Source of the DNA: Schmidtea nova
Taxonomy: Eukaryota
NCBI GenBank assembly: GCA_044892505.1
Contig: CM097882.1
Location: 138,136,001 to 138,200,000, forward strand
Reading direction: 5' to 3'
Length of the DNA stretch: 64,000 bases
Below are positions 17,428-41,516 of the stretch, piece after piece (within the stretch, counting starts at the first letter, position 1; every line of letters begins with the position of its first letter). The notes beneath the pieces are model-generated. The model was not told the DNA's origin. It saw only the letters and a program-made list of their open reading frames with translations, and did no database searches. The position numbers were made by a program, and so were the translations under genes.

Positions 17428-17471
17428 ATTGGTCGGTCTAGACACGACTGATCAGTATAAATACTGATCAG
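17428..17471 (+). promoter_or_regulatory. Putative LTR core promoter: inverted CCAAT (ATTGG) plus TATAAA inside an 11-bp inverted repeat; second copy 42660-42703
   Basis: ATTGG at 17428; CTGATCAGTAT-AA-ATACTGATCAG at 17448-17471; AATAAA ~200 nt downstream. Confidence 0.55.
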
Positions 17472-18439: not shown

Positions 18440-18907
18440 ATGACTAAGCATAGATACACTATCAAAAAACGACAAGAACGAGCCCGAGTTAGCCCATTAA
18501 AGCCGGCTCCTTTCGAGATTTTACAGCAAATCCATCAAAAAATGTGGGCATGGCGCCGAGAGCTTGAAACCGCCTGTCCATTTACATTATGGGACCATCC
18601 ACGGCACCACGTATGGTACCGGGGATGCGCTAGTTGGCCAATTATTCCAGACGAGGAATGCGAATCATGGCACGCCGCCTGGTTCGTCCTGATGTTGGAT
18701 AAGGGAGGATTCCCGAAATGTGTGATATATTGGGGGTTCATTCCAGCCTCTACCTTCAAGGAATTGGGGTTCAAGTTCAATACCGCAATACGACCCCTTC
18801 GAGAAGCTGAGAGGATCCGTTTTCAGCAGGCCTCGTCCAATATCAACACAAATTTGCAAATCAGATCGATATTTTCATATCGAGGAAAAATGACCGAAGA
18901 TGAATAG
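18440..18907 (+). CDS. LTR-encoded Trp-rich protein of unknown function (155 aa)
   Basis: ATG-initiated, preceded by a TTCAG acceptor-like site, identical in both repeats, more GC-balanced than its flanks. Confidence 0.6.
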   Translation: MTKHRYTIKKRQERARVSPLKPAPFEILQQIHQKMWAWRRELETACPFTLWDHPRHHVWYRGCASWPIIPDEECESWHAAWFVLMLDKGGFPKCVIYWGFIPASTFKELGFKFNTAIRPLREAERIRFQQASSNINTNLQIRSIFSYRGKMTEDE

Positions 18908-19228
18908 TTGAATCAATGGCCACATGTTTTTTTTAATTTAATAAATGTTTTAAAAAAGGTCTGAAGTGTCTCATTTTGTTAATAGTGTTGTCATGTAGAT
19001 TTAGTATTCTAGTTGTTATAGTCATTAGGAAATTCATTTAATAATCTCAAACTAGTTCAATAAATCCTTTGAGCCTTCAATAAATAGATAGTTAATTAAT
19101 TTTGCAACAAACTTAATAATTAAAAACATTAGTATGCATCTCGTTTAATGATAGTAAATAATAGACTAAATAAAATAACATTGTTGACAGGTCCTCCAGC
19201 GAATTTATCGTTATAATATTCAGACAAC

Positions 19229-19813
19229 ATGCCGACTTCAGAAAATTCCAAGAAAATCATGGGACAAATCCAAGAGAGGAAGTTGAGGGACCAGCAGCGT
19301 CAGATCAAGCGACTCACGGTCGCCAATGATGAATTGAGAGCGAAGTGGTTCTCACCCGAACAAATGAAGGACCAGTCGAAAAAACTTGAGCGAATGCAGG
19401 AAGCACTGGCCACAACCAAATTGGAACTAGATGCCGTCCAGCGAGAACTCCGAAATTGCCTAAACGCAGTAACAAGAAGTTACATCGACTCCGAATTACG
19501 AGCGCTAATCCGGCCGATCACGGCTCAGCGCTGGATACAATGCACTCACCAAGATGTCGCTTGCGGGACGGAAGAGGGAATCATCATGGCCCCCTCTCTT
19601 ACAACGGAAGATTTGCCTATTTTTCTCAGTGATCCCCCGAGAACAATAGCGCCAGCACCGGTCATAAACCAACAGCTTCGAAAACACCGAATGGGATCGC
19701 GACAGCGTCGTCGTCGCCGAGAATTTGCAAAGCGCCTGGACGAACAAATCCACCACTTGAACTCCTTAACCGAAGCGGAGTTGATTCAGGAGATTAGTCT
19801 GGAATTCGCTTAG
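19229..19813 (+). CDS. LTR-encoded coiled-coil protein with Arg-rich motif (194 aa)
   Basis: ATG-initiated, preceded by TTGTTGACAG, contains RKHRMGSRQRRRRRE, followed by AATAAA. Identical in both repeats. Confidence 0.65.
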   Translation: MPTSENSKKIMGQIQERKLRDQQRQIKRLTVANDELRAKWFSPEQMKDQSKKLERMQEALATTKLELDAVQRELRNCLNAVTRSYIDSELRALIRPITAQRWIQCTHQDVACGTEEGIIMAPSLTTEDLPIFLSDPPRTIAPAPVINQQLRKHRMGSRQRRRRREFAKRLDEQIHHLNSLTEAELIQEISLEFA

Positions 19814-20378
19814 GAAAACATCCATGTAAAATAACAACCTGTTTTTAGTATTTTAATAAAAGTATTTCTGTGTAAATTTTGTCTCTCATCGGGTGATGTT
19901 ACTAAATGAAATAAAATAACAAAAATGAAATCATCGAAATAAAAAAATATCGCCCCGAAATTTTCTCAAACCGACCGTTTATACGCAGGGACTGATTAAT
20001 TACATTGTAGATCAATTAAGGAAAGTCGTTGGGAAAGGCGTGTGATAGAGCATAAGGATATGTAGTACAAAATTTAGTAGAGCGAACATCCATAGAATGA
20101 AAATGCGTAAGACCTTCTATCGGCAGCAAGGACCCGAGGGAAGATAAATGGGGAGTAGTTTTGGCAACAAAGCTCACCTGCCCATCATTTTTCCCCCACC
20201 GTATGCAGTACCAACTTGACTAGTAGGGAATAGTCAAGGGCATACGCGTGTAGTAGTCATGTTATGTATGGTTATGGGCGTGGAATCCCTAGTATACATA
20301 TTCATCAATAGTCGTTCAATTAATGATTAACTATTTATTTGAATTACTTAAAACCCACCCATAACCCCAGCATAAATT

Positions 20379-20396
20379 TGGGGGCTCAGCCGGGAT
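20379..20396 (+). promoter_or_regulatory. Primer-binding site, tRNA-Pro type
   Basis: TGGGGGCTCAGCCGGGAT matches the canonical tRNA-Pro complement TGGGGGCTCGTCCGGGAT at 16/18 positions, 6 nt after the LTR-terminal CA. Confidence 0.85.
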
Positions 20397-22130: not shown

Positions 22131-22148
22131 GATATCCGGATATATAGT

Positions 22149-22359: not shown

Positions 22360-22909
22360 GTGATCGTCGACGATAATGAGAATAGTGCGCACCAGGAATT
22401 GAGAAATGCGAGTAAAGCTGATTATGCGACCTAAAATAATGCATGCAAGTAGAATCGAGAAATAGGAGCTGACCGGAAAGACCGGCAGAATTAATAATTA
22501 GAGGCTAGCAGAGAGAAAGATAAAGAGATAATAAAATAATAATCGAGTCAAATGACTCAGGGAATTAGAGCGTTCGAACGACAAATAAATTGGGAGACCG
22601 CGGGAAAAATAATTGATGTATTTTAATAACCGATAGATAATTGTTATGACTAAATAGATAATTGTGACTAGTATATAGATAATTTAAATAGACTTAAATA
22701 AAGGGGAATCTGGGAATGGGGAAAAATAATAGAAACCCAGTAATGAGAAGTCCCGTAAAAAGGGAATAAAAGCGCAACGATAACAATAGAGTATCGTTGA
22801 AGTGACATTTGTATTTTAGATAAATCAATCAAACCAAACCAAGCAACCAAGGAAGAAAAGAATCGGAACACGATAAGACAGGAAAATTGAGTATACAAAA
22901 GTAATCCCG

Positions 22910-25900
22910 TTGAGAAAAGGAGAAAAGAGTGTCATAATAAAACCAGCAGAAAAGAATAAAGCTACCAAGAATAATAATCAGAAAGGCCTAAAAGGAAGTA
23001 AAGCAAGGCAGATAATAATACAAAAGTCGATTATCGAAAACGATAAATTATCAGTAACAAGCAACAGTTCAAGCAACAAAGAAAATCAAGCAGAACCCGA
23101 GAGAAACCCAATAAGTGAAATAGAAGTCGACAAAACCAACAACGATTATATAGAAGAAATAGAAGACGAAGTAGAACAAGAAACAGAAAGTGACGATACC
23201 GATAACGATAGTAAAGCATCAGATAACGAATCAGCAAAAGAAACTGAGATCGACCGAAATTCGAGTGACGAACCTAACAGTGAACTAGAAACAAGAGGAA
23301 ACGAAAGTAAAATAACTACAGACAGCGGAATTGAAATGAGCGAACCCAGAGAAGAGATAAAAGACAAATTTTCCGGAGAACCGTTTAATGGAGATGCGAG
23401 TAAATTAGAAACTTTCTTAAAGGAATTTGGCATATTCGTGGAAGTATGCAAGTGGAAACCAGAAACAACTGTAAGCAGAATTCAGCTATATTTAAAAGAT
23501 AGCGCATTAGATCTATATTTGGAAGCAAAAAATGGAATTAATCCACCTACAAGTTGGTCAGCGATAAAGGACTTTTTCCAACAAACCTTCGGAATAAACA
23601 AAGTATTGAATGAGGCATTCACGGAATTCTCAATGAGGAAACAAAAGATAAATGAATCAAATGCGGTATATGCAAGCGAATTAAAAAAGTTGGCAAAGTT
23701 GATTTTCAATCAAGACAGTCCAATAAATGAAGAGTTAATGGCAGCTATCTTTGTGGGAGGATTAAGAAGACCCGACATAAGAGCGCAAGTTGGATGTCAA
23801 GGTTGTAAAACCATCGACCAAGCACTAGAAACAGCTAATAGATTTGAACTACACATGATAGGAAATGACGGTAGAATCTATTTAGCTATGGATACAGCAC
23901 AAAACGAACAAGAAGTGAACCTGAATAACCACATTCCAAATTCACAACAATTAAACCGACCACCACCGCAACGAAGGAATGAAGGGAATAAAGTATCAAA
24001 TTACGGAAATCAAAACAATTACAACCCCCAAGGACCAACGAAACAATGCAAAACATGTGGGAAATTGGGACATTGGCAACAAGAATGTTATCAGAACTTG
24101 AATTGTGGAAAATGTGGAGTAAAAGGGCATTCAGAGAGCAGAGGTTACACAATAACCTGTTTTAATTGTGGACGACCTGGACATCTATCAAGAAATTGCG
24201 GACAAAGAAGCAATCAACGAGGAAACTGGCAGAATACCGGAAACCGACAAAACTATGGAAACCAACCAACTGGTGGAAACCGACAGAATTATGGAAATCA
24301 GCCAAATAATGGAAACCAACCGGAATACGGAAACCAACCAAATAGTAATAATAATAACCAAAATAAAAATACCACTAAAGAGATACATTTAATGCAAGAG
24401 GTTCAAAGATTGACGGAGCTGATAAACAATACAAACAGAGGAAATCAGCAAACAGGTCAACAACAAATCAATATGATGAGAAAAATAGAAAGCGAAAACG
24501 AACAATTGAATCGGGAAAGTCAAGCACGACATGCTCAGGAATGGGCAAGAATACAAAGAGAAGAGGAACAAAAACAGCAAGAAAGAGAACGACAACCTCT
24601 AAGAATTAATATGATGAGAGCAACCAATCAAACAAATACCCACGAGAAAGAGACTGTACCAGAAATAAATCCAACAAACCCGAATCCAACCAACAACGAA
24701 GGCCGAAAAGAGATAATACAAGAAGATGAAGAAGCAGAAAAAGAAACAGAAAAGGAAGTAGAAAAAGAAGGGAACCAAGAAGAGAAAAGGAAACTCGGGA
24801 AAAGAGGAATGATGGTAATTTTGCCAAACAAGCACGTGTTTCGATTCCAATATAACATAAAGGAAGAAGTAGAAATATTGTTCAATAAAGTGAATGAAAT
24901 GGCTCCAGGAGTAACGAAACTGCCCAGAGAAGCATTCCTAAAAATAGAAGGTGCACCAGAAGTAAAATTGAAACTAACGGATACATGGGAAAACATGGGA
25001 GTAGTAGAGACAAAAAGAAATGTGATGGTAATCAAGGAAATAGAACCAGAAGGAATTCCATCGCCAGTGCGTCACGAAACACGAATCAGTCGAATATTTA
25101 AAGGGAAAATGATACGAAGACGGTTGGGAGAAATAGACGAGTTAGAACGAAAAATGAGAAAGGTCGAAGTAGTAGACAACAAGAGTGAATCAACACAAAA
25201 AGCTATTAAAAGTGAAACAAGACCAACGGAAAATACACCAAGCGAAACCAACCAAATAAAACACATTAACATGTTGAGAGGCCAGGCAAAGAATTTTTCA
25301 GACGACGAAGAGGATAGTGACGTCAGTAGTCTAGCAGGGGACATGCTAGACGAACCGGAAATTGAAGACAAAAAGATAGAAGTAGTAAAGACACCAGAAA
25401 CTATTCAAGTAAAAGAAGACGAGATCCAGAAATTATTAGATAATACGCTAGAAGTAATATATAATGAGGAATTCATTGACAAGAAACACTATAGAAAATT
25501 CATGAGAGCAATATTACAAATGAACTATAAAGAGTGGTTACCAGGCCGGGAAGTAGAAACACTAAGCCAATACGTAGGAAAATTATTAAAAGAACCACTC
25601 CATGAATATATAATCCTAATTGAGATAAAAACATGTTTGCCAAGGATTTGGATCAAAACTCCACTCACGGAAGATATTTATCAATGGGTAGAAGATAGAT
25701 TAGGGAGTTCATATAAAAACAAATTCCTCTATTCACAGAATGGACTAGTGAAGAAAAGGACGCATTTGATAGAAACAGGCATATGGCCAGGAGAGGTGAC
25801 AACATTATCGATATGCGATGATAAGAGAGAAGAGAACCTACAAGAAGTAGCAAAGGAAGCAAATATGTGTTTCGAGAAGAAGATAAAACCACGGTTAGAA

Positions 25901-28162
25901 TATGAGAAAGGACGAATCTTACGAGGAAATCTAAATTCCATGATAGAACAAATCATCCCACAAATCAAAAAACATAGAAAGGAGTTAATGAGAAGCGAAT
26001 ACGAAAAGTTGAAACGATGTATCGAGTGCATACGTGACACAAGTCACACGAGATGGTCACAGATCTCATACGGAAAAGTAATTGCCAAAATGGGAAAAGC
26101 AATGTTCAGACAAGGGAAAATAACAGATCTAAAAATTTCAGTGGAATTGCCTAATGAGGATACCAAAGAAATTGAAGTGGTAGCAGATTGTACCATAAAA
26201 GAATTAGTAAATGTCATCAACGAGACACTATTACAAAGAGAACCAGAAGAAGAATGGGAGGATGACATAATCATGAAATATAACGAACATGTATTATGGG
26301 ATCACGATGAAAGACGGCTATATAAAATTGGTATATGGGATAATCACCAAACCATCCACGTTATCAGAATGGACGATACACCAAGAGAAACTGCTAAAGA
26401 TGAGAAAAGAGAACGGGAACGACAAAAAGAAGTTGTGCATAAATTACAACAAATAGTAGACATCTATCGAAATTGGCGGATTTGGCCAGAATGGGAAAAT
26501 GTATTAGAGGAACTCAATCTCAACAGACGATTACGAACACCCGTAGAAAAGAAATGGAACGAACGAGGAAAATGTTGGGAACCAAAAGCAGGCGAATACG
26601 AAGAGGAATACGAAATAAGCATAGAAGACGATCACAAACCGGAAACCGGAAGAGTCTGTATGGTAACAAGAAAAGCCATGCCAGCGGATTTAGACGGACC
26701 AGAAACGGCAACCATGTGGTTGGAAAGAGAAAAACAAAAAACGGAAGAATTTGTCGAAATATTAAAAACCAATGCTCATGGCAAGAGAAAATTAGTAAAA
26801 GGTCTCGCAGATTTTTTCGTAGTTAATGGAGAAGACATAACCTGCCTGCGTAAAGTAGCAAAAGCAATCGCCGAATACAAAAGAGTTAACGAGTGGTGTC
26901 CAGAACAATTGGATCAAGTAATTAAAAAATGGAGAAACCAAGAATTCTCGCAGGAATCGCCACAGAAAGTACACCTAAGAATAGTATATCCGAACCAAGA
27001 AAAGGAAGAGTTTTGGGTAGGGATAGCGGAGAAAGTTCGAGACATTAAAAAGAAATTGAGATATGAACCACCATTCCATTTACAACACCAAGGACGATCA
27101 TTAGATAACAGCTTGGAAATTGGAATAACGCCAGCGCAATTAGATATCGCAAATACATTGACAGTGGCAGCAATAGCAGGTCAACCATTGAAATTGAAAG
27201 AGGAAAAGAAATCAAAAGGAAGTATGAGTACGCCGAGCCCAATGAAATCGGTAATGACTCCAGGAACAAGCTCAGAACAAGCTAGAACAACACCAAGAGA
27301 GACAAGAGAAAGAACACCACCAGAACCATACGACGTAGACGAAATTTTTACAGATAGCGATGATATGTTAGAGGAGTTAATAGAGCTAACAAAAGAGAAA
27401 GATGATAATATTTTCGAAAGAATCCAAGAATTACCAACAGCAATACCGGTAACCAACACCGAAGATGAAGTCGAACAAGAAATAATAATAGAAGAAGTAA
27501 ATGAAATAGCAGAAGAGGAAGCAAGGAGGGCAAATGTAGAAAATGTACAATTCACACAAGAAATGGAAAGATGGTTAGAAGAAAGAGCCAATGAACCAAG
27601 AGACGTCACAGAAGAAACTGGACGAGAATCAAGATTAGTAGAAACGGGCACGACAATGGATAAACGACCTAGAGGTAGACCCAAGATAGATCCAGCAAAT
27701 GTAGTTATAAAATCAAGAGAGGAAAAAAGACGGGATCAATGGGATTTGTGTTTAAAGAAACTAAATAAAATAGCCGAAACGAAAGAAAAAGAAACAACAC
27801 AAACATATCAAGGCGAAGAATGGATATCAAAGATGTTAATGGAAATACTGGCAATAATCGATCCGGAATTAAAAAAATGGTGGAGAATAAATGAAATAAG
27901 CGAAAGGGCGAAATCACTGCATAGCGCCATCGCACCAATCCTACCAGAACTAATAAAAGAGAAGACAAGGTCAAACCACCTAGATTGGCAAGGAACCACG
28001 ATGTTGATAAAGAAGTTAACGGAAGGAGCAGAGACGGATAACAAATATTTAATAGCTATGGCATACACCATTTACAATCTGCTGACACTGAGTAGAGGTC
28101 GACTGAAACCCACAGCACTCGAAAGACATATAAAGAATACAGCCAAAATTATAGAGAAATAA
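22910..28162 (+). CDS. gag: Gag with large C-terminal extension (first ATG at 23336): capsid-like core, CCHC knuckles, Q/N repeats, putative ubiquitin-like domains, AT-hook
   Basis: MSEPREEIKDKFSGEPFNGDASKLETFLKEF gag start; knuckles CKTCGKLGHWQQEC and CFNCGRPGHLSRNC plus one degenerate knuckle; KRPRGRPK. The track start at 22910 is TTG. Confidence 0.9.
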   Translation: MRKGEKSVIIKPAEKNKATKNNNQKGLKGSKARQIIIQKSIIENDKLSVTSNSSSNKENQAEPERNPISEIEVDKTNNDYIEEIEDEVEQETESDDTDNDSKASDNESAKETEIDRNSSDEPNSELETRGNESKITTDSGIEMSEPREEIKDKFSGEPFNGDASKLETFLKEFGIFVEVCKWKPETTVSRIQLYLKDSALDLYLEAKNGINPPTSWSAIKDFFQQTFGINKVLNEAFTEFSMRKQKINESNAVYASELKKLAKLIFNQDSPINEELMAAIFVGGLRRPDIRAQVGCQGCKTIDQALETANRFELHMIGNDGRIYLAMDTAQNEQEVNLNNHIPNSQQLNRPPPQRRNEGNKVSNYGNQNNYNPQGPTKQCKTCGKLGHWQQECYQNLNCGKCGVKGHSESRGYTITCFNCGRPGHLSRNCGQRSNQRGNWQNTGNRQNYGNQPTGGNRQNYGNQPNNGNQPEYGNQPNSNNNNQNKNTTKEIHLMQEVQRLTELINNTNRGNQQTGQQQINMMRKIESENEQLNRESQARHAQEWARIQREEEQKQQERERQPLRINMMRATNQTNTHEKETVPEINPTNPNPTNNEGRKEIIQEDEEAEKETEKEVEKEGNQEEKRKLGKRGMMVILPNKHVFRFQYNIKEEVEILFNKVNEMAPGVTKLPREAFLKIEGAPEVKLKLTDTWENMGVVETKRNVMVIKEIEPEGIPSPVRHETRISRIFKGKMIRRRLGEIDELERKMRKVEVVDNKSESTQKAIKSETRPTENTPSETNQIKHINMLRGQAKNFSDDEEDSDVSSLAGDMLDEPEIEDKKIEVVKTPETIQVKEDEIQKLLDNTLEVIYNEEFIDKKHYRKFMRAILQMNYKEWLPGREVETLSQYVGKLLKEPLHEYIILIEIKTCLPRIWIKTPLTEDIYQWVEDRLGSSYKNKFLYSQNGLVKKRTHLIETGIWPGEVTTLSICDDKREENLQEVAKEANMCFEKKIKPRLEYEKGRILRGNLNSMIEQIIPQIKKHRKELMRSEYEKLKRCIECIRDTSHTRWSQISYGKVIAKMGKAMFRQGKITDLKISVELPNEDTKEIEVVADCTIKELVNVINETLLQREPEEEWEDDIIMKYNEHVLWDHDERRLYKIGIWDNHQTIHVIRMDDTPRETAKDEKRERERQKEVVHKLQQIVDIYRNWRIWPEWENVLEELNLNRRLRTPVEKKWNERGKCWEPKAGEYEEEYEISIEDDHKPETGRVCMVTRKAMPADLDGPETATMWLEREKQKTEEFVEILKTNAHGKRKLVKGLADFFVVNGEDITCLRKVAKAIAEYKRVNEWCPEQLDQVIKKWRNQEFSQESPQKVHLRIVYPNQEKEEFWVGIAEKVRDIKKKLRYEPPFHLQHQGRSLDNSLEIGITPAQLDIANTLTVAAIAGQPLKLKEEKKSKGSMSTPSPMKSVMTPGTSSEQARTTPRETRERTPPEPYDVDEIFTDSDDMLEELIELTKEKDDNIFERIQELPTAIPVTNTEDEVEQEIIIEEVNEIAEEEARRANVENVQFTQEMERWLEERANEPRDVTEETGRESRLVETGTTMDKRPRGRPKIDPANVVIKSREEKRRDQWDLCLKKLNKIAETKEKETTQTYQGEEWISKMLMEILAIIDPELKKWWRINEISERAKSLHSAIAPILPELIKEKTRSNHLDWQGTTMLIKKLTEGAETDNKYLIAMAYTIYNLLTLSRGRLKPTALERHIKNTAKIIEK

Positions 28163-28240
28163 ATAGAACCGTACATCATCAGTAAAGGAGGATGGGAAAC
28201 ATTCACAAAAACGAACCAAAAGAAAACCCAAGCCAAAAAT

Positions 28241-31200
28241 ATGAAAAGGAAATTCGAAGAGATATTGGGAGAATTGGAAAAGGAAAAGTCGGGAACAGGA
28301 AACGGGAAATCATCACTAAACTTGAGTTCTATCATTATGATGATGTTAATATGGATGATTAGTACTGACGGAGCAACAGCATTTGAAGTATTCGATTGTG
28401 ATCAAATGGCATTAGGTGAGAAATATTCACTACGAGGGACAGAACAATGTAAGGACGCAACCCCAACGGAGCTAAAAACATTAAAAAAGAGACAATTATA
28501 CCACGTATATCAGGAAGCTGAACTGATAAGAACAATGGTCAGAGAATGCAAAGTTTATAAAACCAGATTTGCTTTTTATTGTGGGCACCGCCATTATTCA
28601 GCAATCGTGATGCCAGGAACGGAAAGAGAATCGGTAATGCTGCAAGGAGAAGACTGTGAAAAATTATTTAAACATGGGGAAGTAGAGACTAGAGATAGAG
28701 TAAAGATAAGAGGAAAAACGGGAGTGATATTGCAACAAACATATTATGTAGCAGGAGCTATTACGGGAGGAGAAGGGTACTGCCAAGGAGCAACATATCC
28801 AATATTCGGAGTAGCAGCAACAAACCTAGTGGTAATAGATACGTATACAGTGGAACTAAAAACGTACGAGGCATTCTTCGATCCAACGACGGGAGAAATG
28901 AAAACTCTACCTATGTGCAAAATCGAGTCAAACACTTGTCAGACTGGTATGTCAACCCTAACCTACCAGATACGAGGAAAGGAATGTCAACTACAACTGT
29001 TAAAGGAAGCAGAATTCGATGAGATACAAGGGAAAACCTTCCAGGAGGAAGAAGAAGACGAGGCAGCAAGAGGAAAAATACTTCAAGACACAGTACGAGG
29101 AGAGAAAAAGATTGAAACACGAACACAAGAAAAGCAAATCAAAATGAGAAATACACCAACGGTACTAATTACCTCAGATGCAGATATCGGAATGAGGTTT
29201 GTAAAAGGAAAAACAGCCTTGAAATGCGGAGTAGCCATGTTGGAAACCAACTACCCCGGCATTTTCGTATCGAAACAAGAAGTACCTAGTGCGAAACGCA
29301 AAGTGCACACGAACGATGTTAAATTACACCTGTACATGAACAATAAAATGGATTTTCTATTCCATAGAGGACAAGCGTCACTACAAAAAGTGTATTACGA
29401 TTTAATTAACAACGATTGCATATTAAATAGGGAAATATTAAAGACAAAATTAGCAGTTGCAATCACAAACCCGGATTGTGCAATGCCATTATTACCATTG
29501 AGAGAAGGTCATTTTGGAAGGGTAGTCGGAGAAGTCATGTATGTATACATATGTAAAAAGACAAATGCGAAGGTAGCGACAATGACAAAATTACAACCAG
29601 GGCAGTGTACTAACGAACTAGAAATCGAATACAAAGGGAAGGTAAGATATGTGCAACCAGTGACAAGAATCATAAATCCAGTAAGCTTCGAACCAAATCC
29701 TTTCAATTGCAGCAACGCATATGGACCACTATACCAAAAACCAGACGGAAATTGGGTTATGTTTCCGTCAAGAACAGAGGTACCAGCACCAAGGGAATTT
29801 GAATTGATGCAACTATCAAAAGGACGAAAATTTAAAGACGTAGATGTAAGTAATATGGGATTCTATAGCGCAAAAGACTTAGAGGCAGCGAGGCAAAACA
29901 TACTATTTCCAGCAAGAAGGGAAGCGGTGCTATCCAGTATTGTAACAATAACAGGAGGAACAAATTACCAAGGTGGACCAAATTACGAATTATTATTGTC
30001 ACCAGCCCACTTTAAGAAGGCAACGGAAAACATGATGAAAGCGATGTGGGGAAGATTTTTAATATTTGGACAAATGATGGCAGGAATACTTGGTGTTATA
30101 CTAATTATACAAATAATACGGGTAATAATAACGCAAATGTTAGCCTGTTTTGACATCTATAAAAGAGAAAAGAAAGTAAATTGGAAATTGGTGGTAGGAT
30201 TCTTACCATTTTTGGCTAAAACAATGGTATTACACGGTCATTCAAAAGATATTCACCGAATAAAGAGACTCCTAAAAATACTGGCAAAAATGAAAGGAAC
30301 CGATGAAGAGGTGGGACGAAAATTTAAAAAGATAATGAATAACGAGCAAGCAAGACAACAACTAAAGAAAGAGAGAAAAGGACTATGGGAAAGAATGAAA
30401 GGGTACAGAACCCAAGACGATTCCAGTGACGACGATGATGATGATAACGAAGGAGGTCAAGTATTTAAAAATCAAGTACCACAGTATGTCGAAAAGAATC
30501 CAGCGGAAATGTGGAAATGTTACGCACCCCCACCAACCATGTACCAAGAACCAACACCAGGGATGAGACAAAATACAATGCAAATGATGCCGATGACAAA
30601 CATATATCCTATGATACCAGAAGACTATAGAACGAGACGGTGCAGAAGCGTAGATCCGCAAGGAGACTCACATACAATTGCAGTAATGTCATCAAACACC
30701 GGTCCAGTATTAACTACAACAATCGAAATTAACGGAAGGGAAATTGAAGCGATGATTGATACAGGAGCAAATATCTCAGCAATAGATATAAAATGGATAC
30801 CACAAGAACAAAGACGGGATATTGAGAGAACCAACGTTCACGTAATAGCATGCAGTAAAGAAGTAGTAGAAGTTGCCGGAAGATGGTGGGTAAAGATAAA
30901 ACATCAAAACACAGAAATCGAAACGTACGTAGCAGTAATACCAGCACTGAGCGTACCATGCATTATAGGCACAGATTTAATGCCAGCATTATTTAAAGAA
31001 ATAGTTATTGACCTCGGAACAATGAGATTAAAGGATAGGACAGGACAGATATGCGCAATAGAAGCAAAAGTAACAAGTTCGAAACAAATAATTGTACCAG
31101 CACGGAGAGAGAAAATATGTTTCGTAAAAATAGATCCTACAATAGAAGGTGATATGATCTTTGAACCCAGTAAAAGATTTGAAAAGAGAAAGTCGTTGCC

Positions 31201-34200
31201 AATGGCAAGGGGATTAGTGAGTGCGAATGACAACGGAGAAATCCCAATAAATGTAGTAAATTTCGATGAAGAGGATAAAATAATTTATGAAAACGAAAGA
31301 CTAGGTAAACTAACTCCAATGATAGATATCGAAATACCAATAAAAGAAGGAGTAAAAGAGGAGGAACCCACTTGGAACATTGATAGCCAACTATTAAATG
31401 AGGACCAAAAAAAACAGCTAGAAAGATTACTGATAGAATATAAAGACATATTCGCAGCATCCGATTTAGATCTAGGGACATGCGACGTCACACTACATAC
31501 GATTCCACTTACAGACGAAACGCCGATTGCGTTAAGACCATACAAGTTAGCTGAAGCGCAAAAATCAGTAGCCGAAGCAGAAGTACAGAAAATGCTAGAC
31601 GCAGAAGTAATTGAACCAAGCTGCTCACCGTGGCAATTCCCAGTTGTAATGGTGAAAAAGAAAGACGGAACACAACGATTTTGTATTGATTATCGGAGAT
31701 TAAATGCGGTAACAAAACGGGATACATACCCATTACCAGACATCAACGAGATGTTATTGACATTACAAGGAGCGGCATACTTTACATCATTAGATTTGAA
31801 AAGCGGATACTGGCAAATTAAAATGAAGGAAGAAGACAAAGAGAAAACTGCTTTCACGATCGGAAGAGACTTGTACCAATTTAGGAAAATGCCATTCGGA
31901 CTAACCAATGCGCCAGCATCATTTCAAAGATGTATGAATTTCGTTACCCACGGCATAAAACAATGCATGGTTTACATTGACGACCTACTGATCTACTCAA
32001 GCACATTTGAACAACACATCCAAGATATCAGAGATGTATTTGTTAGATTGAGACAATGGAAACTCAAGCTCAAACCATCGAAATGCGATTGGGCAAAAGA
32101 GAAAGTGACATTCTTAGGACATATTGTGTCCGCAAAAGGAAAGGAACCAGATCCCAGAAACATTGATAAAGTAAAAGAATGTCCAGTACCAAAGACGATA
32201 ACGCAGATCCAAGAATTTCTCGGATTATGCGGTTACTATAGAAAATTCATAAAGGATTACGCAGGAATTGCAAAACCAATCCAGGAGCTAGTAAAGAAAG
32301 ACGTATCGTTCATATGGGGAAGCGAACAACAAACAGCCTTCGAAACATTACGAGATAAGTTAATAACTGCACCAATATTGGTTCACCCGGATTTCAAGAA
32401 GCCATTTTTACTCGCAACCGACGCAAGTGGATATGCAGCAGGAGCAGTGTTAGGACAATATGATGACGAGGGAAAAGAGCGGGTAATCGGATATTATAGC
32501 AGAACATTCAAGAAACACGAGAAGAATTATTCAGTAACGGAAAGAGAAGCATTGGCAATAATATTAGCAATAAAACACTTTAAATATCTATTATGGGGAC
32601 ACGTTATATGCATAACCACGGATCATCAACCACTGGTATGGCTAGGACAACATAAGGAAACATCCAGCAGGTTGATGAGATGGGCGATGCAATTACAAGA
32701 ATATTCACCAGATATAAAATTCAAATCAGGAAAAGCGAATGCCAACGCAGATTGCATGTCAAGATTAACGTTTCCAGAATTAACAGACCCAGAAGTGCAA
32801 AGAATATGCATAATGATAGCAGAGGATTTGGATTTCAGCGAGTTAAAGAAAGATCAGCAAGAGGATAAAGAACTAAGACCCATCATAGAATTCCTAAGCT
32901 CACGGAATATGGATGTATTCAAAGACAATGCGGAGTTAAAAGAACACATGAGGAAATACCAACATCGATACACAATAGAAAAAGGATGGTTATTAATACA
33001 GGATGGAGAAAAACGATTAATGTGTCTGCCAAGTAATAGACGAAAAGAGATAATAACTCAATACCATGACGGAAAGTTGGGAGGACACATGTCCGATAAG
33101 AAAACATTAGATCGCATGAGACAAAAATATTATTGGCCAACAATGGACGAGGACGTAAAGGAATGGATAAAGAACTGTTTAACTTGTGCCACAAGAAAGG
33201 ATAGTGGGAAGAAATGGAAAAATCCCTTAAAACCCATGCCAATACCAGCGGAACCAATGACTACCATTGCGATGGATGTAATAGGACCATTGCCAGAAAG
33301 TTTAAACTGGAATCAATATATATTGGTAATAACGGATTATTTGACGAAATTCCCTGAAGCATTTGCGATGCCGGATCAAAAAGCAAAGACCGTAGCAAGA
33401 ATTTTAGTAGAGGAAATATGTTGTCGATACGGAACCCCGAAACAAATACTAACAGATCAAGGAACAAATTTTATGAGCGAAATATTAGATGAAGTAACAA
33501 ATTACTTCAGAATAGCCAAATTACGAACGTCACCATATCATCCGCAAACTAATGGACAAACGGAAAGATTTAACGGCACATTGATTCGAATGTTATCCAA
33601 TTATGTAAGCAAACACCAAACAGATTGGGATGAGTACATAAAGCTATGTCTAATGGCATACCGAATGTCGATACACGCAGCAACAAAATTGAGTCCATTT
33701 CAATTAATGTATGGAAGGGAATGCAATATGCCAATAGATCTTGAATATCAACCACCTTTGTCTCAATATATGGAGGAAGATGATTACGTCACCAAATTCA
33801 AAGAACGAATGCAAGAGATATGGAAGACAGCAGAACTAAACATAAAGTTTTACCAAGAAAGTTACAAGGACCTACACGATCAAAAGAAAAATGTTAAAAC
33901 AAATGATCTTAAACCCGGAGATTGGGTAATGATAGAAACCCCAGAAATAATACCAGGAACCGTTAAAAAACTACAAAGACCAGGAAAAGGCCCTTACGAA
34001 GTTATATACAAAAAGGAAAACAATGTGAAGGTAAAACTTGTTAATCGACCATTGATACGACCAATATACGTTAATACATGCAGATGTAAAAAAGTACCAA
34101 AGACAATAACCACAGCGCCAGAAGAACGAATAATAACCAGATCCCAGACAGCCAGAATGAATATGCTCAGAGCAACCAATGAAAGTACCGAAGCAGAAAA

Positions 34201-37200
34201 CAATCAACAAGAAAAAAGAAACAAGGAAATTGTACTAAAAGCCAGGGAAATAATGGGAAAATGGCATGTCAGAGACGATATATTAAGAGATATACAATTG
34301 ATAATTAGTGATTACGCAAGGGGACTACCAACAAAACCAGTCATTTCAGAACTATTGGAGAAAATTCCAGAAATACTTTCACTACAAGACATAGGAGGAC
34401 AACCAGCATTACATAACGCCATAAAATGGGGAGAAGTAGAGAGAGTAAAAGAATTTCTAAAAATCGCTAAGGAAACAAACCAACACCTTGGTTTTGGGAA
34501 TAGCGAACAAGAAACACCATTAATGGTAGCAGCCATCTACAAATCGGATAAAGCAATAATAGACCTTTTGATAAATGCCGATTTCAACTGGACGGAACGC
34601 GATAGAGAAAACAAAACAGTCTTGAATCACGCAATATGGAGCTCAAATCAGATAATGCTCAAACAAATAATCGAGAAGGCCACTTGGGAAATAGACGAAC
34701 TGATCAAAGGTGATATAATCAAGGAGGCAATAAAAATCGGTAACTGCAAAACAATACGCAAGCTAATAAAGTGGAAAAGATCCGAAAATGATACATGGGT
34801 ATTAAATATAAACGAGGTATACAGTGAAGGACAAAACGCGTTATTACAATTCCTATTAAAATTCGTCTGTGATCAGAAAACACTGTTAACGCTATTAGAT
34901 AGAGGAAATATCATAATGTCCAAAAACAAAGAGGAGTGTAAATTCAAAAGTGAAAAAGAAGCATTATTCAGGAATATTAGGGAATGGTGTACAAAATCGC
35001 TAACCAAGACGATAACTTACAAAGATATATCCAATTTTCAAGACAAATACAAAACGGTGGAGGAGGAGTATGACAAACTAATAGACATATTAAACCACCC
35101 CGAAAGATGCAAACAATTCCTATGTCGAAAGGAAAGAGAAAGCAAAAGGAAATTTACACCACTTTTCAGCGCAGAGGTACCTTATCAAGAAAGGTTAGAT
35201 GCGATACAGGACAAAGCAAAAAAACTATTACCAGAATTCGAAAATTCTAAACATACACTGGAGATACTCGGAGCAATTGTGGAAAAGATACACGCATATG
35301 CGGAAGGAACCTACAATGAAAACGATATGATGCTCATAAAAAGAGAAATGCCAGTGACTTTCTTATTAACAAAGAATGGAGTATTGCCAATACATAGAGC
35401 CTTACGAGCAGGAAAAGATAGGAGGGTAGTCGAAATTGCACGGTTGATGCAAGATTGCGGAAGTGACATGAACATGAAAGATAAAAAGGGAGATACCCTC
35501 ATGATATTCGCAGCAAGAGCGAACACAAAAACCCGAGTGTTACAGGAACTGTACGAAGCAGGTGCAGGACTCATGGGAAGAACGAACAAAGACAGCTCAA
35601 TACTAGACGTAGCGTTGTTAACGCACAATTGGGAGGTAATAAACTTTATAAAAACAATCACAAATCAGGAGGAAATAGAATACCTTACAAGGATAGTTAA
35701 AAAAGCTAGCGTACATTCCATGATGCATAACGCTGAACTAACCGAAGCAATACTCAATTGGATGAACCCAAACACCAATGAACCAGCATTCAGGATCAAC
35801 GAGTTCATGGAACAAGGCCAAAATTTGTATATAAAGTGTGCATTAATAATAAACAAATGGCCAAAGATAATAGACATCTTCATGAGAAGAAAAGATTTGC
35901 GATTCACAAACAACCCAAAGGAAACAGAACGTACGGACAAATGGAAAGAACTAATGAAAACGTACCTTAATAATTGGATAAAAGCCAAGAAAGAGATTCT
36001 AGATTGTAAATTAACCGATAAGGAAATACCTAAGCAGGCAGTAACACAAGAATATGAAGCAAGTATACTCACAACCATAACGTATGAAAAAATGATAGAA
36101 GCAATTAATGTCGAGGACGACATTTTCAACGACCAAAGGGGAGGCGACAATACAGGAAACGACGACGATAGTACTCGAGAAAATCCAGAGGATCATGAGT
36201 TATCAGATGAAGAGGACAGTGAAGAGAAAGGAAGGGACACAGAGAAAAATGATAAGAAAAATGAATTTGGGAAACAAAGAAACAACAACTATAAAAATAA
36301 AAACGAAGCAAAAAGAACAAGCTACAAACAAACAATAAATCCATTCTTTAAACCAGAACTATTATTACTAACGGTAATCATGACCTTAATTAGTCCCACT
36401 CAAGGAATGATATGTGAAGAAAGAACGACAATACAAATTGGAAACGCAAAAGGAATCGAACGAGTATGTTGGTCAAAAAAGGACAAAATATCGGGACAAA
36501 ATAGTCCAATGGATTGCAGGATCTCAGAATACGAACAAGAAATCATAGAGATCGATGACCTAGAGCTAGATACTTGGTACAGAATGTGCACCGTTCGGAA
36601 ACCAAAGGATCCGAGATCACATAAGACAATTGCATGTGCAAACTACCTAACACCCAAAATAACCATAACAGTACAGCAGACATCCAAAGGAGACTACGCC
36701 GTAGGAAAGTGTGGAAAAACAGAGACCCAAGGAACAAAAAACAAAAAACCCCAGACAATAGATAGACGAACAACGCCAACTATACGAATTACCATAGACA
36801 GGCCCGAAGCAAGAGTAACCACAAATGAAACCAAAAGAGTGACCTACCAAACAGAATTACTATGTTTAGCACTCATATTAACAATGTTAAAACGGTTAGA
36901 AGAAGGGATAGACATTGACACAATGGCAGTAACAGAGATGAACGACACCCAAAACACCAACCCAAAGTGTTGGGCCAGAAGCAACGAAGAAATTGGCGTA
37001 AGCGAAATAAAGACGAGTCGGAAAAGGAAAACAAATAAAGTAACCAAGATATCAGAAGTAAAAGCAGACAGGACGTATGAACTATGTTTACTAGAAAAAG
37101 AAAGACACAAGAAAGGAACGACAATTTGTAAAACATTTCAACCTGGGGAAACAATAAAGTTCATAAGACGAGGAAGAAAAAATATACGCACCAAACGGAG

Positions 37201-38299
37201 AACAACTATAATGTTAGAGTTAACCGGGATAGAACCGGACGTCAAAGGCGTATGCTGGAAGAAGCAGGAAAAGAAAACAAACCAGAATACACCGCCGCAA
37301 TGTCGAACAAACAGAGGAACAACCACAATACAGATAGAAGGGTTAGAAAGTAATCAAACGTACGAAATATGCCTGATCAGGAAGAGCGACAAAATAACAG
37401 TAAATGAACTGGAATGCAAAATATATAAAACACCCAGCAGAACAAGAATTGGAAAGACAACGCGAAAAAGCAGAAGACAACGGAACAAAGGAAAAGCGAG
37501 GTATACCACTACTTTTGAACCTAATGGACAACAGAAAAACCAAGAAATACAAATAAGAACCGAAAAGAATACTACAGCAACTCTTATACTATGGAGAATA
37601 GACAATAAAACGTTAGAAATATGTTGGGCAGTAGTTCAGGAACAAAAAGAAAGACAGCCACGATCCTGCGAAAACGTAAAAGGAAAAGAAGAAATGAGTA
37701 TCAAAAATCTGAAATTTAATAGAGAATACGAGATATGTGCGGTAGAAAAGACGGACATATTGGGAAATCAGCAGGAAAGATGCGAAACGTACTACACACC
37801 GGTAAACTCAACGTCCAAAGGGAAAGTGAGAAAACTCGAATTTAAAGAATTAAGTCAGACAACGAAACAAATGGACGCAGAACAAGTAGTAATAGACCCT
37901 TACGCAAGATGGACGCCGGAAGAAGTAATTAAAGAAGTTAAAAGAAAACAACAAGAACGAGAACAACTACTAAATAAACTAAAGGGACAATACGGACCAA
38001 TGATTAACCAGAGTGAAATTACGAAGATGGACGTAAACAAACAAGTTAGAGAACTAATTGGTCTAGGAATACTAGCAGCAACTATTCCAGTAATAACAGT
38101 ATTATTAATAATATGGATATATGATGTATTCAACAAGAAACCAATAACACATTGGCCAGATATAAAAATTATGAACTACAGAATAGAATTACCGGAAGAA
38201 GTACAGAAAGAATTTCAAAGGAGGACGAAAGGCAAGGAATTTTGGAGACAAATAGAAGATGAGGAGCGATACGAAGGAAAGACAGTGATGGTGATATAG
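28241..38299 (+). CDS. pol: 3352-aa polyprotein: Env-like glycoprotein, protease, RT, RNase H, integrase, ankyrin repeats, FN3-like type I membrane protein
   Basis: MIDTGAN (30758), YIDD (31973), LLATDASG, HDGKLGGH...CLTC, MDVIGPLP/TDQGT/NGQTERFN, GKGPY, ankyrin motifs, and several hydrophobic segments. Confidence 0.95.
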   Translation: MKRKFEEILGELEKEKSGTGNGKSSLNLSSIIMMMLIWMISTDGATAFEVFDCDQMALGEKYSLRGTEQCKDATPTELKTLKKRQLYHVYQEAELIRTMVRECKVYKTRFAFYCGHRHYSAIVMPGTERESVMLQGEDCEKLFKHGEVETRDRVKIRGKTGVILQQTYYVAGAITGGEGYCQGATYPIFGVAATNLVVIDTYTVELKTYEAFFDPTTGEMKTLPMCKIESNTCQTGMSTLTYQIRGKECQLQLLKEAEFDEIQGKTFQEEEEDEAARGKILQDTVRGEKKIETRTQEKQIKMRNTPTVLITSDADIGMRFVKGKTALKCGVAMLETNYPGIFVSKQEVPSAKRKVHTNDVKLHLYMNNKMDFLFHRGQASLQKVYYDLINNDCILNREILKTKLAVAITNPDCAMPLLPLREGHFGRVVGEVMYVYICKKTNAKVATMTKLQPGQCTNELEIEYKGKVRYVQPVTRIINPVSFEPNPFNCSNAYGPLYQKPDGNWVMFPSRTEVPAPREFELMQLSKGRKFKDVDVSNMGFYSAKDLEAARQNILFPARREAVLSSIVTITGGTNYQGGPNYELLLSPAHFKKATENMMKAMWGRFLIFGQMMAGILGVILIIQIIRVIITQMLACFDIYKREKKVNWKLVVGFLPFLAKTMVLHGHSKDIHRIKRLLKILAKMKGTDEEVGRKFKKIMNNEQARQQLKKERKGLWERMKGYRTQDDSSDDDDDDNEGGQVFKNQVPQYVEKNPAEMWKCYAPPPTMYQEPTPGMRQNTMQMMPMTNIYPMIPEDYRTRRCRSVDPQGDSHTIAVMSSNTGPVLTTTIEINGREIEAMIDTGANISAIDIKWIPQEQRRDIERTNVHVIACSKEVVEVAGRWWVKIKHQNTEIETYVAVIPALSVPCIIGTDLMPALFKEIVIDLGTMRLKDRTGQICAIEAKVTSSKQIIVPARREKICFVKIDPTIEGDMIFEPSKRFEKRKSLPMARGLVSANDNGEIPINVVNFDEEDKIIYENERLGKLTPMIDIEIPIKEGVKEEEPTWNIDSQLLNEDQKKQLERLLIEYKDIFAASDLDLGTCDVTLHTIPLTDETPIALRPYKLAEAQKSVAEAEVQKMLDAEVIEPSCSPWQFPVVMVKKKDGTQRFCIDYRRLNAVTKRDTYPLPDINEMLLTLQGAAYFTSLDLKSGYWQIKMKEEDKEKTAFTIGRDLYQFRKMPFGLTNAPASFQRCMNFVTHGIKQCMVYIDDLLIYSSTFEQHIQDIRDVFVRLRQWKLKLKPSKCDWAKEKVTFLGHIVSAKGKEPDPRNIDKVKECPVPKTITQIQEFLGLCGYYRKFIKDYAGIAKPIQELVKKDVSFIWGSEQQTAFETLRDKLITAPILVHPDFKKPFLLATDASGYAAGAVLGQYDDEGKERVIGYYSRTFKKHEKNYSVTEREALAIILAIKHFKYLLWGHVICITTDHQPLVWLGQHKETSSRLMRWAMQLQEYSPDIKFKSGKANANADCMSRLTFPELTDPEVQRICIMIAEDLDFSELKKDQQEDKELRPIIEFLSSRNMDVFKDNAELKEHMRKYQHRYTIEKGWLLIQDGEKRLMCLPSNRRKEIITQYHDGKLGGHMSDKKTLDRMRQKYYWPTMDEDVKEWIKNCLTCATRKDSGKKWKNPLKPMPIPAEPMTTIAMDVIGPLPESLNWNQYILVITDYLTKFPEAFAMPDQKAKTVARILVEEICCRYGTPKQILTDQGTNFMSEILDEVTNYFRIAKLRTSPYHPQTNGQTERFNGTLIRMLSNYVSKHQTDWDEYIKLCLMAYRMSIHAATKLSPFQLMYGRECNMPIDLEYQPPLSQYMEEDDYVTKFKERMQEIWKTAELNIKFYQESYKDLHDQKKNVKTNDLKPGDWVMIETPEIIPGTVKKLQRPGKGPYEVIYKKENNVKVKLVNRPLIRPIYVNTCRCKKVPKTITTAPEERIITRSQTARMNMLRATNESTEAENNQQEKRNKEIVLKAREIMGKWHVRDDILRDIQLIISDYARGLPTKPVISELLEKIPEILSLQDIGGQPALHNAIKWGEVERVKEFLKIAKETNQHLGFGNSEQETPLMVAAIYKSDKAIIDLLINADFNWTERDRENKTVLNHAIWSSNQIMLKQIIEKATWEIDELIKGDIIKEAIKIGNCKTIRKLIKWKRSENDTWVLNINEVYSEGQNALLQFLLKFVCDQKTLLTLLDRGNIIMSKNKEECKFKSEKEALFRNIREWCTKSLTKTITYKDISNFQDKYKTVEEEYDKLIDILNHPERCKQFLCRKERESKRKFTPLFSAEVPYQERLDAIQDKAKKLLPEFENSKHTLEILGAIVEKIHAYAEGTYNENDMMLIKREMPVTFLLTKNGVLPIHRALRAGKDRRVVEIARLMQDCGSDMNMKDKKGDTLMIFAARANTKTRVLQELYEAGAGLMGRTNKDSSILDVALLTHNWEVINFIKTITNQEEIEYLTRIVKKASVHSMMHNAELTEAILNWMNPNTNEPAFRINEFMEQGQNLYIKCALIINKWPKIIDIFMRRKDLRFTNNPKETERTDKWKELMKTYLNNWIKAKKEILDCKLTDKEIPKQAVTQEYEASILTTITYEKMIEAINVEDDIFNDQRGGDNTGNDDDSTRENPEDHELSDEEDSEEKGRDTEKNDKKNEFGKQRNNNYKNKNEAKRTSYKQTINPFFKPELLLLTVIMTLISPTQGMICEERTTIQIGNAKGIERVCWSKKDKISGQNSPMDCRISEYEQEIIEIDDLELDTWYRMCTVRKPKDPRSHKTIACANYLTPKITITVQQTSKGDYAVGKCGKTETQGTKNKKPQTIDRRTTPTIRITIDRPEARVTTNETKRVTYQTELLCLALILTMLKRLEEGIDIDTMAVTEMNDTQNTNPKCWARSNEEIGVSEIKTSRKRKTNKVTKISEVKADRTYELCLLEKERHKKGTTICKTFQPGETIKFIRRGRKNIRTKRRTTIMLELTGIEPDVKGVCWKKQEKKTNQNTPPQCRTNRGTTTIQIEGLESNQTYEICLIRKSDKITVNELECKIYKTPSRTRIGKTTRKSRRQRNKGKARYTTTFEPNGQQKNQEIQIRTEKNTTATLILWRIDNKTLEICWAVVQEQKERQPRSCENVKGKEEMSIKNLKFNREYEICAVEKTDILGNQQERCETYYTPVNSTSKGKVRKLEFKELSQTTKQMDAEQVVIDPYARWTPEEVIKEVKRKQQEREQLLNKLKGQYGPMINQSEITKMDVNKQVRELIGLGILAATIPVITVLLIIWIYDVFNKKPITHWPDIKIMNYRIELPEEVQKEFQRRTKGKEFWRQIEDEERYEGKTVMVI
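28331..30231 (+). other. Env-like domain: chuvirus/Monjiviricetes-type fusion glycoprotein with signal-like and transmembrane segments
   Basis: IIMMMLIWMI...ATA|FEVFDC; YSL...C; ECKV...R...YCG..HYS; AG...G.G.C.G..Y; CG...ETNYP; LYMNNKMDF; C...REILKTKL; GEVMYVYIC; CTNEL; ILFPARREAVL; TM FLIFGQMMAGILGVILIIQII. Motif and Cys order recognised by eye. Confidence 0.75.
34390..35660 (+). other. Ankyrin-repeat region downstream of integrase
   Basis: GQPALHNAIKWGE, ETPLMVAAIY, KTVLNHAIW, VLPIHRALRAG, GDTLMIFAARAN, SSILDVALLTHN. Confidence 0.8.
36353..38130 (+). other. C-terminal membrane protein: signal-like segment, four Cys-containing FN3-like repeats, TM anchor
   Basis: PELLLLTVIMTLISPTQG; four repeats of the form xCW...(C)...I..L....Y.(I/L/M)C...C; TM LIGLGILAATIPVITVLLIIWIY. 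Confidence 0.65.
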
Positions 38300-38781: not shown

Positions 38782-38872
38782 ATAAATAAAGCGAAAAATT
38801 GTAAATATGTAAAAACAAAAACAAGAAAAATCAAAAAATAGATAACAAATCAAGTGTATATATCATTGTAGA

Positions 38873-40256: not shown

Positions 40257-40372
40257 CAAGAGAAGTGATCATGTAAATAATATGTACAGTTAAATACCCA
40301 AAAATTATTATATAAACAAAAATAACTGATATATAAACCGATTAAAAATTTTTTTTCTCTGTAATTATAGCA

Positions 40373-41434: not shown

Positions 41435-41516
41435 ATAAAGCGGAAAATATATTTTTGTAAATAATTGTATGAAATGTAGTGTCAAATTGTATTGATCTAT
41501 CTGTAAAGAAAACAGT

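Follow-up and report, generated by a model that had tools for sequence, protein, structure and literature searches.

Predicted self-protease sites in the polyprotein of a giant Ty3/gypsy retrotransposon of Schmidtea nova

A 64,000-nt window of the Schmidtea nova genome (NCBI GenBank assembly GCA_044892505.1, contig CM097882.1, positions 138,136,001 to 138,200,000, forward strand) contains a 29.4-kb long terminal repeat (LTR) retrotransposon, whose polyprotein carries short, recurrent hydrophobic motifs such as HINMLR. We conclude that these motifs are probably recognition sites of the element's own retropepsin, at which the polyprotein is predicted to be cleaved; self-protease sites are the best explanation of the motifs. 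Cleavage is very likely at TIAVM and RICIM, likely at HINMLR and RVCMV, and favoured with less assurance at RINMMR, QINMMR and RMNMLR, where the grade follows from family resemblance and linker position, no homolog covering the first two. At EIHLM it falls somewhat short of probable, and at QICAI it is unlikely. An earlier note on this DNA had read all but TIAVM as self-protease sites; that reading is well supported at the RH/IN junction, HINMLR and RVCMV, moderately supported at the next three motifs, and weakly supported at EIHLMQ and QICAIE. Positions are those of the window, and features are collected in Table 1.

One polyprotein and its candidate sites

The element is bounded by 4,211-bp direct repeats that are 99.93% identical (three mismatches). 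Pfam located a zinc knuckle in the first open reading frame (ORF1) and a viral fusion glycoprotein, protease (PR), reverse transcriptase (RT), RNase H (RH), integrase (IN) and ankyrin repeats in ORF2. The Pol order PR-RT-RH-IN, read from Pfam coordinates, was backed by AlphaFold and Foldseek, and Gag holds a capsid (CA)-like domain and a CCHC knuckle (Pfam, BLASTP). By its LTRs, Pol order and Gag, the element is a Ty3/gypsy LTR retrotransposon. ORF1 (1,761 aa) and ORF2 (3,378 aa) share a frame and are separated by a single TAA, giving a stop-to-stop total of 5,140 codons (1,761 + 1 + 3,378) with the first Met at codon 154.

A search with the Pol region returned 212 matches, the best 120 of which were listed; ten close relatives (41-46% identity) were used most and are cited here by P numbers. 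Relatives of sufficient length hold Gag, Env and Pol within one ORF. The RT of the giant element groups with 10 Env-bearing relatives (support 88/94, below the starred threshold), and no named Burro element occurred among the Pol-region or ORF1 matches listed. In several relatives (P0023, P0026, P0038, P0032, P0024, P0030 and P0031) the polyprotein contains two or three protease-like copies, which flank Pol and mostly have DTG intact; the giant element has one copy.

The TAA falls inside a predicted helical domain. With X placed at the break, homology crossed it to P0024 (z 9.6) and P0039 (z 7.9); the other five of the seven relatives tested across the TAA gave no significant match, and one further relative could not be anchored. 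Because the helical domain aligns straight through the TAA in these two relatives, ORF1 and ORF2 are, on homology, one Gag-accessory-Env-PR-RT-IN-ankyrin polyprotein of ~5,000 aa that is broken in this copy, and not the two polyproteins supposed earlier. Programmed read-through or an assembly error may instead account for the stop. The helical domain itself (27680-28240) lies before the Env signal and would be tail-anchored if released by cuts at RVCMV and at the signal segment. It has no Pfam or PDB sequence match, and no BCL2 match was found across the stop; it ends in a GGW motif of the kind present in BH2 of Bcl-2.

The eight motifs listed in the earlier note are all present, in frame on the plus strand, five in ORF1 and three (QICAIE, RICIMI, RMNMLRA) in ORF2; for three of them the position that had been given was that of the Ile, which lies 3 nt past the start of the motif. 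TIAVMS (30674), at the pre-protease position, had been overlooked. The two motifs cited from a small Gypsy element elsewhere in the window, VITAL (56872-56858) and INAL (55429-55418), were also found, both on the minus strand. RICIMI lies between RH and IN as described. QICAIE had been assigned to the PR/RT boundary; it sits at the junction of PR with a dUTPase-like domain, and RT starts ~100 residues later.

Site shape, conservation and context

All eight motifs fit [IVM]xx[ILMV], a shape with hydrophobic P2 and P2′. A related shape was obtained de novo by expectation maximization (EM) on the RH/IN linkers of other Gypsy proteins (50 non-redundant of 86 extracted, the giant element excluded): x-V/I-A/N-A/T-L/V/I-T/S, with a log-likelihood of 90.1 against 74-85 in 20 shuffles. 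Untrimmed windows had returned the QxxD fold motif of integrase rather than a junction motif, and trimmed linkers were used instead. Of the 21 protease copies in ten relatives, 13 were preceded by the shape at a distance of 4-18 residues (2.8 expected), namely 7/9 main copies, 5/7 extra copies behind integrase and 1/5 extra copies behind Env. It was also present in the RH/IN linkers of eight of the ten (3.1 expected). At this junction P0038 has RICAL in place of RICIM, and P0057 has SMNML. Forms of the type xM[ILV] precede a protease copy in P0038 (QISML) and two in P0032 (VIAML, LIGMV).

An exhaustive search with ORF1 aa 496-1474 recovered a single homolog of the accessory region, P0123 (E 1.2e-48, 31% identical). 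No identical run between the two is longer than HINMLR (6 aa), which lies within a poorly conserved linker of 29% background identity, and RVCMV is matched without gaps by RISVL in P0123, the local score being 114 as against at most 53 in shuffles. A MATH domain, the only domain annotated in P0123, is inserted there and ends 11 residues upstream of RISVL; it is homologous to the MATH of the TRAF-like gene downstream of the giant polyprotein (38846-40256; score 229, shuffle maximum 62). At the other end, RVQML stands ahead of the ankyrin module of P0032 and aligns near RMNML. The position of the ankyrin module differs among P0024, P0032 and the giant element, with a motif upstream of it in the latter two. 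Alignment of linkers across relatives, a check akin to the alignment across copies that the earlier note had proposed, showed the predicted sites to be conserved at four junction types (pre-PR, RH/IN, HINMLR and RVCMV). At the position of QICAIE, inspection of the alignment revealed no motif in any of nine relatives, and PR may remain attached to RT in much of the clade, with no conserved site between them.

Homology of the ~460-aa accessory module to the modules of relatives is weak (hhalign E 5e-4, probability 33%). The relatives' modules match ubiquitin/UBX Pfam families; a hidden Markov model of their ubiquitin-like modules found no match in ORF1, and pairwise tests were likewise negative. 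Two further candidate sites were noted, SDVSSLAG (25316; partly kept in P0123, rank 8 by the junction matrix described below) and NTMQMMPM (ORF2 aa 806). RIYLAM (23873), at the CA end, was dropped (matrix rank 3196; CA-end enrichment 1/5).

The strict family [IM]NM[ML]R occurs four times where a mean of 0.006 is expected, and none of 2000 block shuffles reached four, for a pattern defined post hoc. With composition-adjusted scoring it was the top non-tandem family, equalled in 0/109 shuffles as 5-mers, 6/109 as 6-mers and 32/109 as 7-mers. We also restricted the search to hydrophobic islands in hydrophilic stretches, in keeping with the earlier note's own hypothesis. The 5-mer family was then top, with none of 5000 shuffles reaching it and EIHLMQ as next neighbour; the 6-mer version was not significant (778/5000), because the filter drops family members. 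The DNA on either side of the four strict copies agrees at only 11-21 of 45 nt, no more than background, and their Leu codons differ; the copies are therefore not recent duplicates.

Flanking hydrophilicity was ranked among 198 [IVM]xx[ILMV] 4-mers. The strict copies took ranks 1, 12, 13 and 21, EIHL 8, RVCMV 53, RICIM 63 and QICAI 126, and the eight motifs differed from the 190 other 4-mers (Mann-Whitney p=0.0008). AlphaFold modelled ORF2 aa 820-2015 from 45 sequences with a mean predicted local distance difference test (pLDDT) of 84; 98 of 1196 residues fell below 50, and TIAVMS, RICIMI and RMNMLRA lie wholly among these. QICAIE straddles a five-residue low-confidence loop and the strand with which a beta domain opens, its C-terminal half being in the predicted strand. 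A position in disordered linkers, as the earlier note had it for its eight motifs, is favoured by AlphaFold for RICIMI and RMNMLRA, and for TIAVMS as well, and by hydropathy for the ORF1 sites; it fails for half of QICAIE. Some 78% of the chain is predicted to be cytosolic, and all candidate sites fall in that part, in agreement with cleavage there but not significantly so.

Several results weigh against self-cleavage. Unrestricted evidence for recurrence beyond chance is mixed: after look-elsewhere correction, gapped three-residue patterns were not significant, and with BLOSUM62 6-mers all 72 of 72 shuffles equalled the motif family. The pre-protease pattern was fixed after viewing the data, there is overlap between the RH/IN windows and the linkers on which EM was trained, and the shape turned up in 54/400 hydrophilic windows taken as controls (43.9 expected); the p-values are therefore optimistic. 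Other junctions of the relatives were not enriched (post-IN 5/10, 3.5 expected; after the nucleocapsid (NC) 3/6, 2.1 expected; CA end 1/5, 0.9 expected). Module starts were (4/9, 1.5 expected, p=0.04), but circularly so, because the windows were chosen around motif-like text. A matrix built from 36 junction windows of 14 relatives found 12 windows of at least 6 bits in the giant polyprotein compared with 9.1 in shuffles, and ranked RICIMI 693 and EIHLMQ 701 of 5085; this failure to enrich indicates that the motif is low in information and that context carries much of the signal. The pattern [IVM][NACSTQG]M[ILMV] was not enriched across 11 relatives (15 vs 11.3). A post-IN matrix test (Fisher p=0.00035) was rejected as circular, five of its sites being pre-protease training sites as well; retests gave p=0.026 with a matrix trained on RH/IN and p=0.24 with the pattern. 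Further searches for ORF1 homologs were empty, leaving P0123 alone, and it stops short of EIHLM, QINMMR and RINMMR. As for structure, TIAVMS and RMNMLRA are near the construct ends, where confidence is low anyway, RICIMI is modelled as a low-confidence helix, and the linker between the dUTPase-like domain and RT is flexible but lacks a motif. The model of ORF1 was uninformative (pLDDT 31), and the best result of a fold search (Z 6.2) was to coiled coils.

Alternative explanations and proposed processing

One alternative is that cutting is confined to the canonical Gag/PR/RT/IN junctions and that the accessory copies are uncut linear motifs, or slow or decoy sites. Such motifs might dock as beta strands on the capsid, the protease or a host protein, and the accessory region would be a large extension of Gag. 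We regard this as improbable. HINMLR, kept at 6/6 residues, is conserved more strictly than the loose canonical sites, the strict family has N-M where the element's own canonical sites have A-V and C-I, and foamy viruses are described, in the passage on their processing, as leaving most of Gag and Pol uncut (PMC3185560). The strict motif nevertheless has the exact P2/P2′ shape of Ty1 sites; relatives use xM[IL] at canonical junctions (SMNML, QISML, VIAML), with LIGMV also before a P0032 protease; and RVCMV and RICIM have R-[VI]-C in common. Chance, helped by selective reading of hydrophobic 4-mers in 5,139 residues, or unselected relics of an old junction duplication, would fit the three unrestricted look-elsewhere tests that were not significant (gapped triplets, BLOSUM 6-mers and 7-mers) as well as a matrix that does not predict sites while 61 windows fit the loose pattern. 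Six of six identities at a site named in advance, against a 29% background (about 6e-4), together with the island test (0/5000) and the composition-adjusted 5-mers (0/109), make this a quite improbable account of the motifs as a whole; of EIHLMQ or QICAIE it is probably true.

The cutting enzyme might also be a host protease, or the element's protease might act in the orthoretroviral type-2 register (I-N-M↓M/L-R). To our knowledge, the sites do not resemble the motifs of known host proteases (dibasic, Asp at P1), which counts against the former. Type-2 retroviral sites, as the relevant passage has it, are hydrophobic at P1 and P1′, and HIV-1 protease favours Asn at P2, although at type-1 sites (PMC3185560). 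Arg at P2′, which this register would require, is unlike described sites, and the junction matrix of the clade consists of hydrophobic residues three apart around two small ones; we consider both variants very unlikely. Scarcely credible, finally, is a signal at the RNA level, in which A-rich context and an ATG (AAT-ATG) would mark internal or subgenomic starts for accessory proteins. All four strict copies do have A at -3 of the ATG and each would begin a module, but P0123 keeps the residues on either side of the Met (H-I-N and L-R), Leu codons vary, and RISVL, TIAVM and RICIM do not fit such a signal.

Under self-cleavage, processing would proceed as follows. An unbroken copy, judging from relatives, would yield one polyprotein of ~5,000 aa that crosses the endoplasmic reticulum membrane at two signal segments inside the chain, one ahead of Env and one ahead of the C-terminal membrane protein, and host signal peptidase would free these two proteins. 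Paired hydrophobic segments recur in relatives at both places. The protease would thus not make all products by itself, since Env and the C-terminal membrane protein start at signal-like segments, implying signal peptidase. In the cytosol, a protease dimer would cut linkers at [IVM]-[N/C/A]↓[M/small]-[M/L/V/I], each site forming a short hydrophobic strand within a charged linker; the register I-N↓M-M/L is inferred by analogy, being borrowed from Ty1. From the motif positions, the predicted products are CA-NC; short spacers, one of 28 and one of 46 aa; three accessory proteins, of ~220 aa, ~460 aa and, for the one that extends to the Env signal, ~500+ aa; PR; RT-RH; an IN of ~450 aa; and an ankyrin protein of ~750 aa.

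More tentatively, and rather less than probably, the protease site may serve as a portable joint, allowing Burro-type elements to gain modules (MATH, ankyrin, ubiquitin-like, extra proteases) in frame by capture or duplication, each with or beside a site. Its own protease and signal peptidase would then divide the ~5,000-aa polyprotein into at least ten proteins, several of which might start with Met and act on host ubiquitin or apoptosis pathways. Hints in this direction are that MATH is in the polyprotein before a site in P0123 and in a separate ORF here, that the ankyrin module moves, and that extra proteases behind integrase keep the motif in 5/7 cases. If true, the portable joint would mean that a retrotransposon expresses its proteins in the manner of a flavivirus, and it would show which units of the Burro polyprotein really act on the host.

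Mapped features and comparison with known systems

The LTR right ends read ...GCA-T and are followed by a stretch resembling a primer-binding site, which presumably matches the 3′ end of tRNA-Pro. The shared repeat starts without TG and within ORF 40346-41434, so the 5′ LTR is probably truncated at its left end; no clear polypurine tract or target-site duplication was found at the element's ends. ORFs lie within the LTRs at 41496-42089 (where a hydrophobic stretch is encoded), at 43618-44139 and at 44449-45045, and the leader upstream of ORF1 holds three tandem arrays at 21638-22377 (units of 30-31, 40 and ~43 nt). The C-terminal membrane protein has no Pfam match; relatives likewise end in a signal and transmembrane (TM) protein.

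Table 1. Mapped features of the giant element (window positions)
Feature	Position	Strand	Basis or remark
5′ LTR copy, 4,211 bp	16163..20373	+	99.93% to 41395-45605; left edge without TG
Probable primer-binding site	20379..20396	+	sequence
ORF1, 1,761 aa stop to stop, Gag and accessory modules	22877..28162	+	first Met 23336; 5′ part of polyprotein
Capsid-like domain	23369..23866	+	BLASTP to relatives' Gag, E 7e-22 to 8e-6; alignment
Nucleocapsid zinc knuckles, two intact CCHC with a degenerate one between	24047..24199	+	PF00098 aa 427-441; sequence
EIHLMQ, weak candidate site ending NC region	24380..24397	+	flank rank 8/198; matrix rank 701/5085
QINMMRK, strict-family candidate site	24464..24484	+	recurrence, flanks; no homolog spans it
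RINMMRA, strict-family candidate site	24602..24622	+	flank rank 1/198; no homolog spans it
HINMLRG, best-supported accessory candidate site	25262..25282	+	HINMLR identical in P0123
Accessory module, ~460 aa, helical parts and ubiquitin-like-looking segments	25283..26650	+	P0123 homology E 1.2e-48
RVCMVT, candidate site preceding last ORF1 module	26651..26668	+	ungapped to P0123 RISVL; matrix rank 4/5085
In-frame TAA	28160..28162	+	break of this copy
ORF2, 3,378 aa, 3′ part of polyprotein	28163..38299	+	ORF list
Signal-like segment, Env (class III-type fusion glycoprotein family), TM helix	28322..30130	+	PF24664 E 9e-68; TM aa 640-656; signal read from sequence and matching hydrophobic stretch in relatives
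TIAVMS, predicted pre-protease site	30674..30691	+	10 residues before protease profile start; matrix rank 6
Aspartic protease, DTG intact	30707..31033	+	PF00077 E 3.6e-8; AlphaFold
QICAIE, PR/dUTPase-like junction, doubtful site	31046..31063	+	loop then strand; unconserved in 9 relatives
dUTPase-like beta domain between PR and RT	31058..31318	+	folded in AlphaFold; phmmer dCTP deaminase/dUTPase E 0.03-0.1, weak
Reverse transcriptase and RNase H	31358..32770	+	PF00078, PF17917, PF17919; Foldseek to CaMV, foamy, Ty3 RT
RICIMI, predicted RH/IN site	32801..32818	+	within 20-residue stretch of pLDDT <50; P0038 RICAL
Integrase	32831..34096	+	PF17921, PF00665; AlphaFold
RMNMLRA, strict-family candidate site between integrase and ankyrin module	34154..34174	+	P0032 RVQML before ankyrin module
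Two ankyrin-repeat modules	34268..35938	+	Ank_2 E 3e-13; two BLASTP matches to P0032 module
Second signal-like segment, repeated Cys-containing beta units, C-terminal TM helix	36353..38119	+	TM aa 3303-3319; hydrophobic pairs in relatives
TRAF-like accessory gene, two frames: Cys-rich part, coiled coil, MATH	38846..40256	+	MATH_2 E 4.7e-21
3′ LTR copy	41395..45605	+	direct repeat

Other elements share the window. On the minus strand, 619-6170 holds an element with 997-bp direct repeats, flanked by N runs, whose ORFs join a DUF1759 Gag-like domain to captured ubiquitin and HSP90 fragments. The small Gypsy (52980-59457, minus strand) has 924-bp LTRs that are 98% identical, a Gag of 354 aa and a Pol of 1,053 aa, and in the RT tree it sits on a long branch, far from the giant element. 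A 318-aa ORF (50692-51648, minus strand) presumably encodes a mariner-type transposase. A perfect 193-bp palindrome at 6739-7125, beside a 497-base N run, is possibly an assembly artefact.

By architecture, compared by description only, the giant element is likely a Burro. Planarian Burro elements are described in the corresponding section of a review, where their polyproteins are the largest described for retrotransposons, as having Env in frame between Gag and Pol, an ORF of 4,873-5,140 aa and a dUTPase-like domain between PR and RT (PMC6431247). Points of likeness to that description are a length of ~30 kb, long LTRs, CCHC knuckles in Gag, in-frame Env between Gag and PR, the dUTPase-like domain, ankyrin repeats and a MATH/TRAF domain (PMC6431247). 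Several of the matches are weak (dUTPase-like E 0.03-0.1; ubiquitin-like only via relatives; length 29.4 kb vs ~30 kb), and no Pfam match to BIR or BCL2, a Burro trait, was found in the giant element. The Burro-like ORF of Dugesia tigrina has 5,140 aa, two knuckles and MATH in a separate ORF, as here (PMC6431247), although the agreement at 5,140 codons may be coincidental. Differences are the in-frame stop and the MATH ORF, downstream here and upstream in the elements of that section (PMC6431247). Burro1 is reported to protect planarian stem cells via an IAP-like region (as cited in PMC13465017). We found no paper mapping Burro processing sites, and the Burro section of PMC6431247 names none; the functional paper on Burro1 could hold such data.

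Ty1 and Ty3, in the passages on their processing, release CA, spacer, NC, PR, RT and IN by their own aspartic protease (PMC6952103, PMC4974528), as is predicted here. The Ty1 sites given there (VPTIN*NVHTS, IHLIA*AVKAV, TARAH*NVSTS) have hydrophobic P2 and P2′ around hydrophilic P1 and P1′ (PMC6952103), which the candidate sites resemble in placing hydrophobic P2/P2′ around small or polar P1/P1′. Ty1 is described with three sites and no accessory modules, whereas the giant element has up to nine candidate sites, 5-6 of them outside canonical junctions, and unlike Ty1 sites these include a Met-rich form with Arg at P3′. Foamy virus sites are said, in the passage cited, to resemble those of yeast retrotransposons (PMC3185560), and the giant element shares with these viruses the retrotransposon-like site shape and a PR that may stay fused to RT; foamy viruses differ in making two cuts only and in expressing Pol and Env separately (PMC3185560). 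GAG-ENV-POL errantiviruses of Platyhelminthes, Nematoda and Bryozoa have the same order, with a class III-type/gB-type Env between Gag and Pol (PMC13524379). In the passages on these elements, mentions of cleavage concern furin sites in Env, with no map of self-protease sites, and the giant accessory load of the present element is not seen (PMC13524379).

The site map presented here predicts exact termini and masses, among them ~26, ~55, ~53 and ~87 kDa, that can serve in raising antibodies, in proteomics and in the design of expression constructs; it also profiles the predicted specificity of an animal Ty3/gypsy protease. In positive-strand RNA viruses such as flaviviruses, one long polyprotein is cut by a viral protease in the cytosol and by signal peptidase in the lumen; the scheme proposed here is analogous and implies no kinship, the protease class and replication being unrelated. 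Self-processing of retrotransposon polyproteins is textbook knowledge, and an LTR polyprotein that cuts itself is ordinary; what is new, as far as the papers found go, is the spread of predicted sites into 5-6 accessory junctions.

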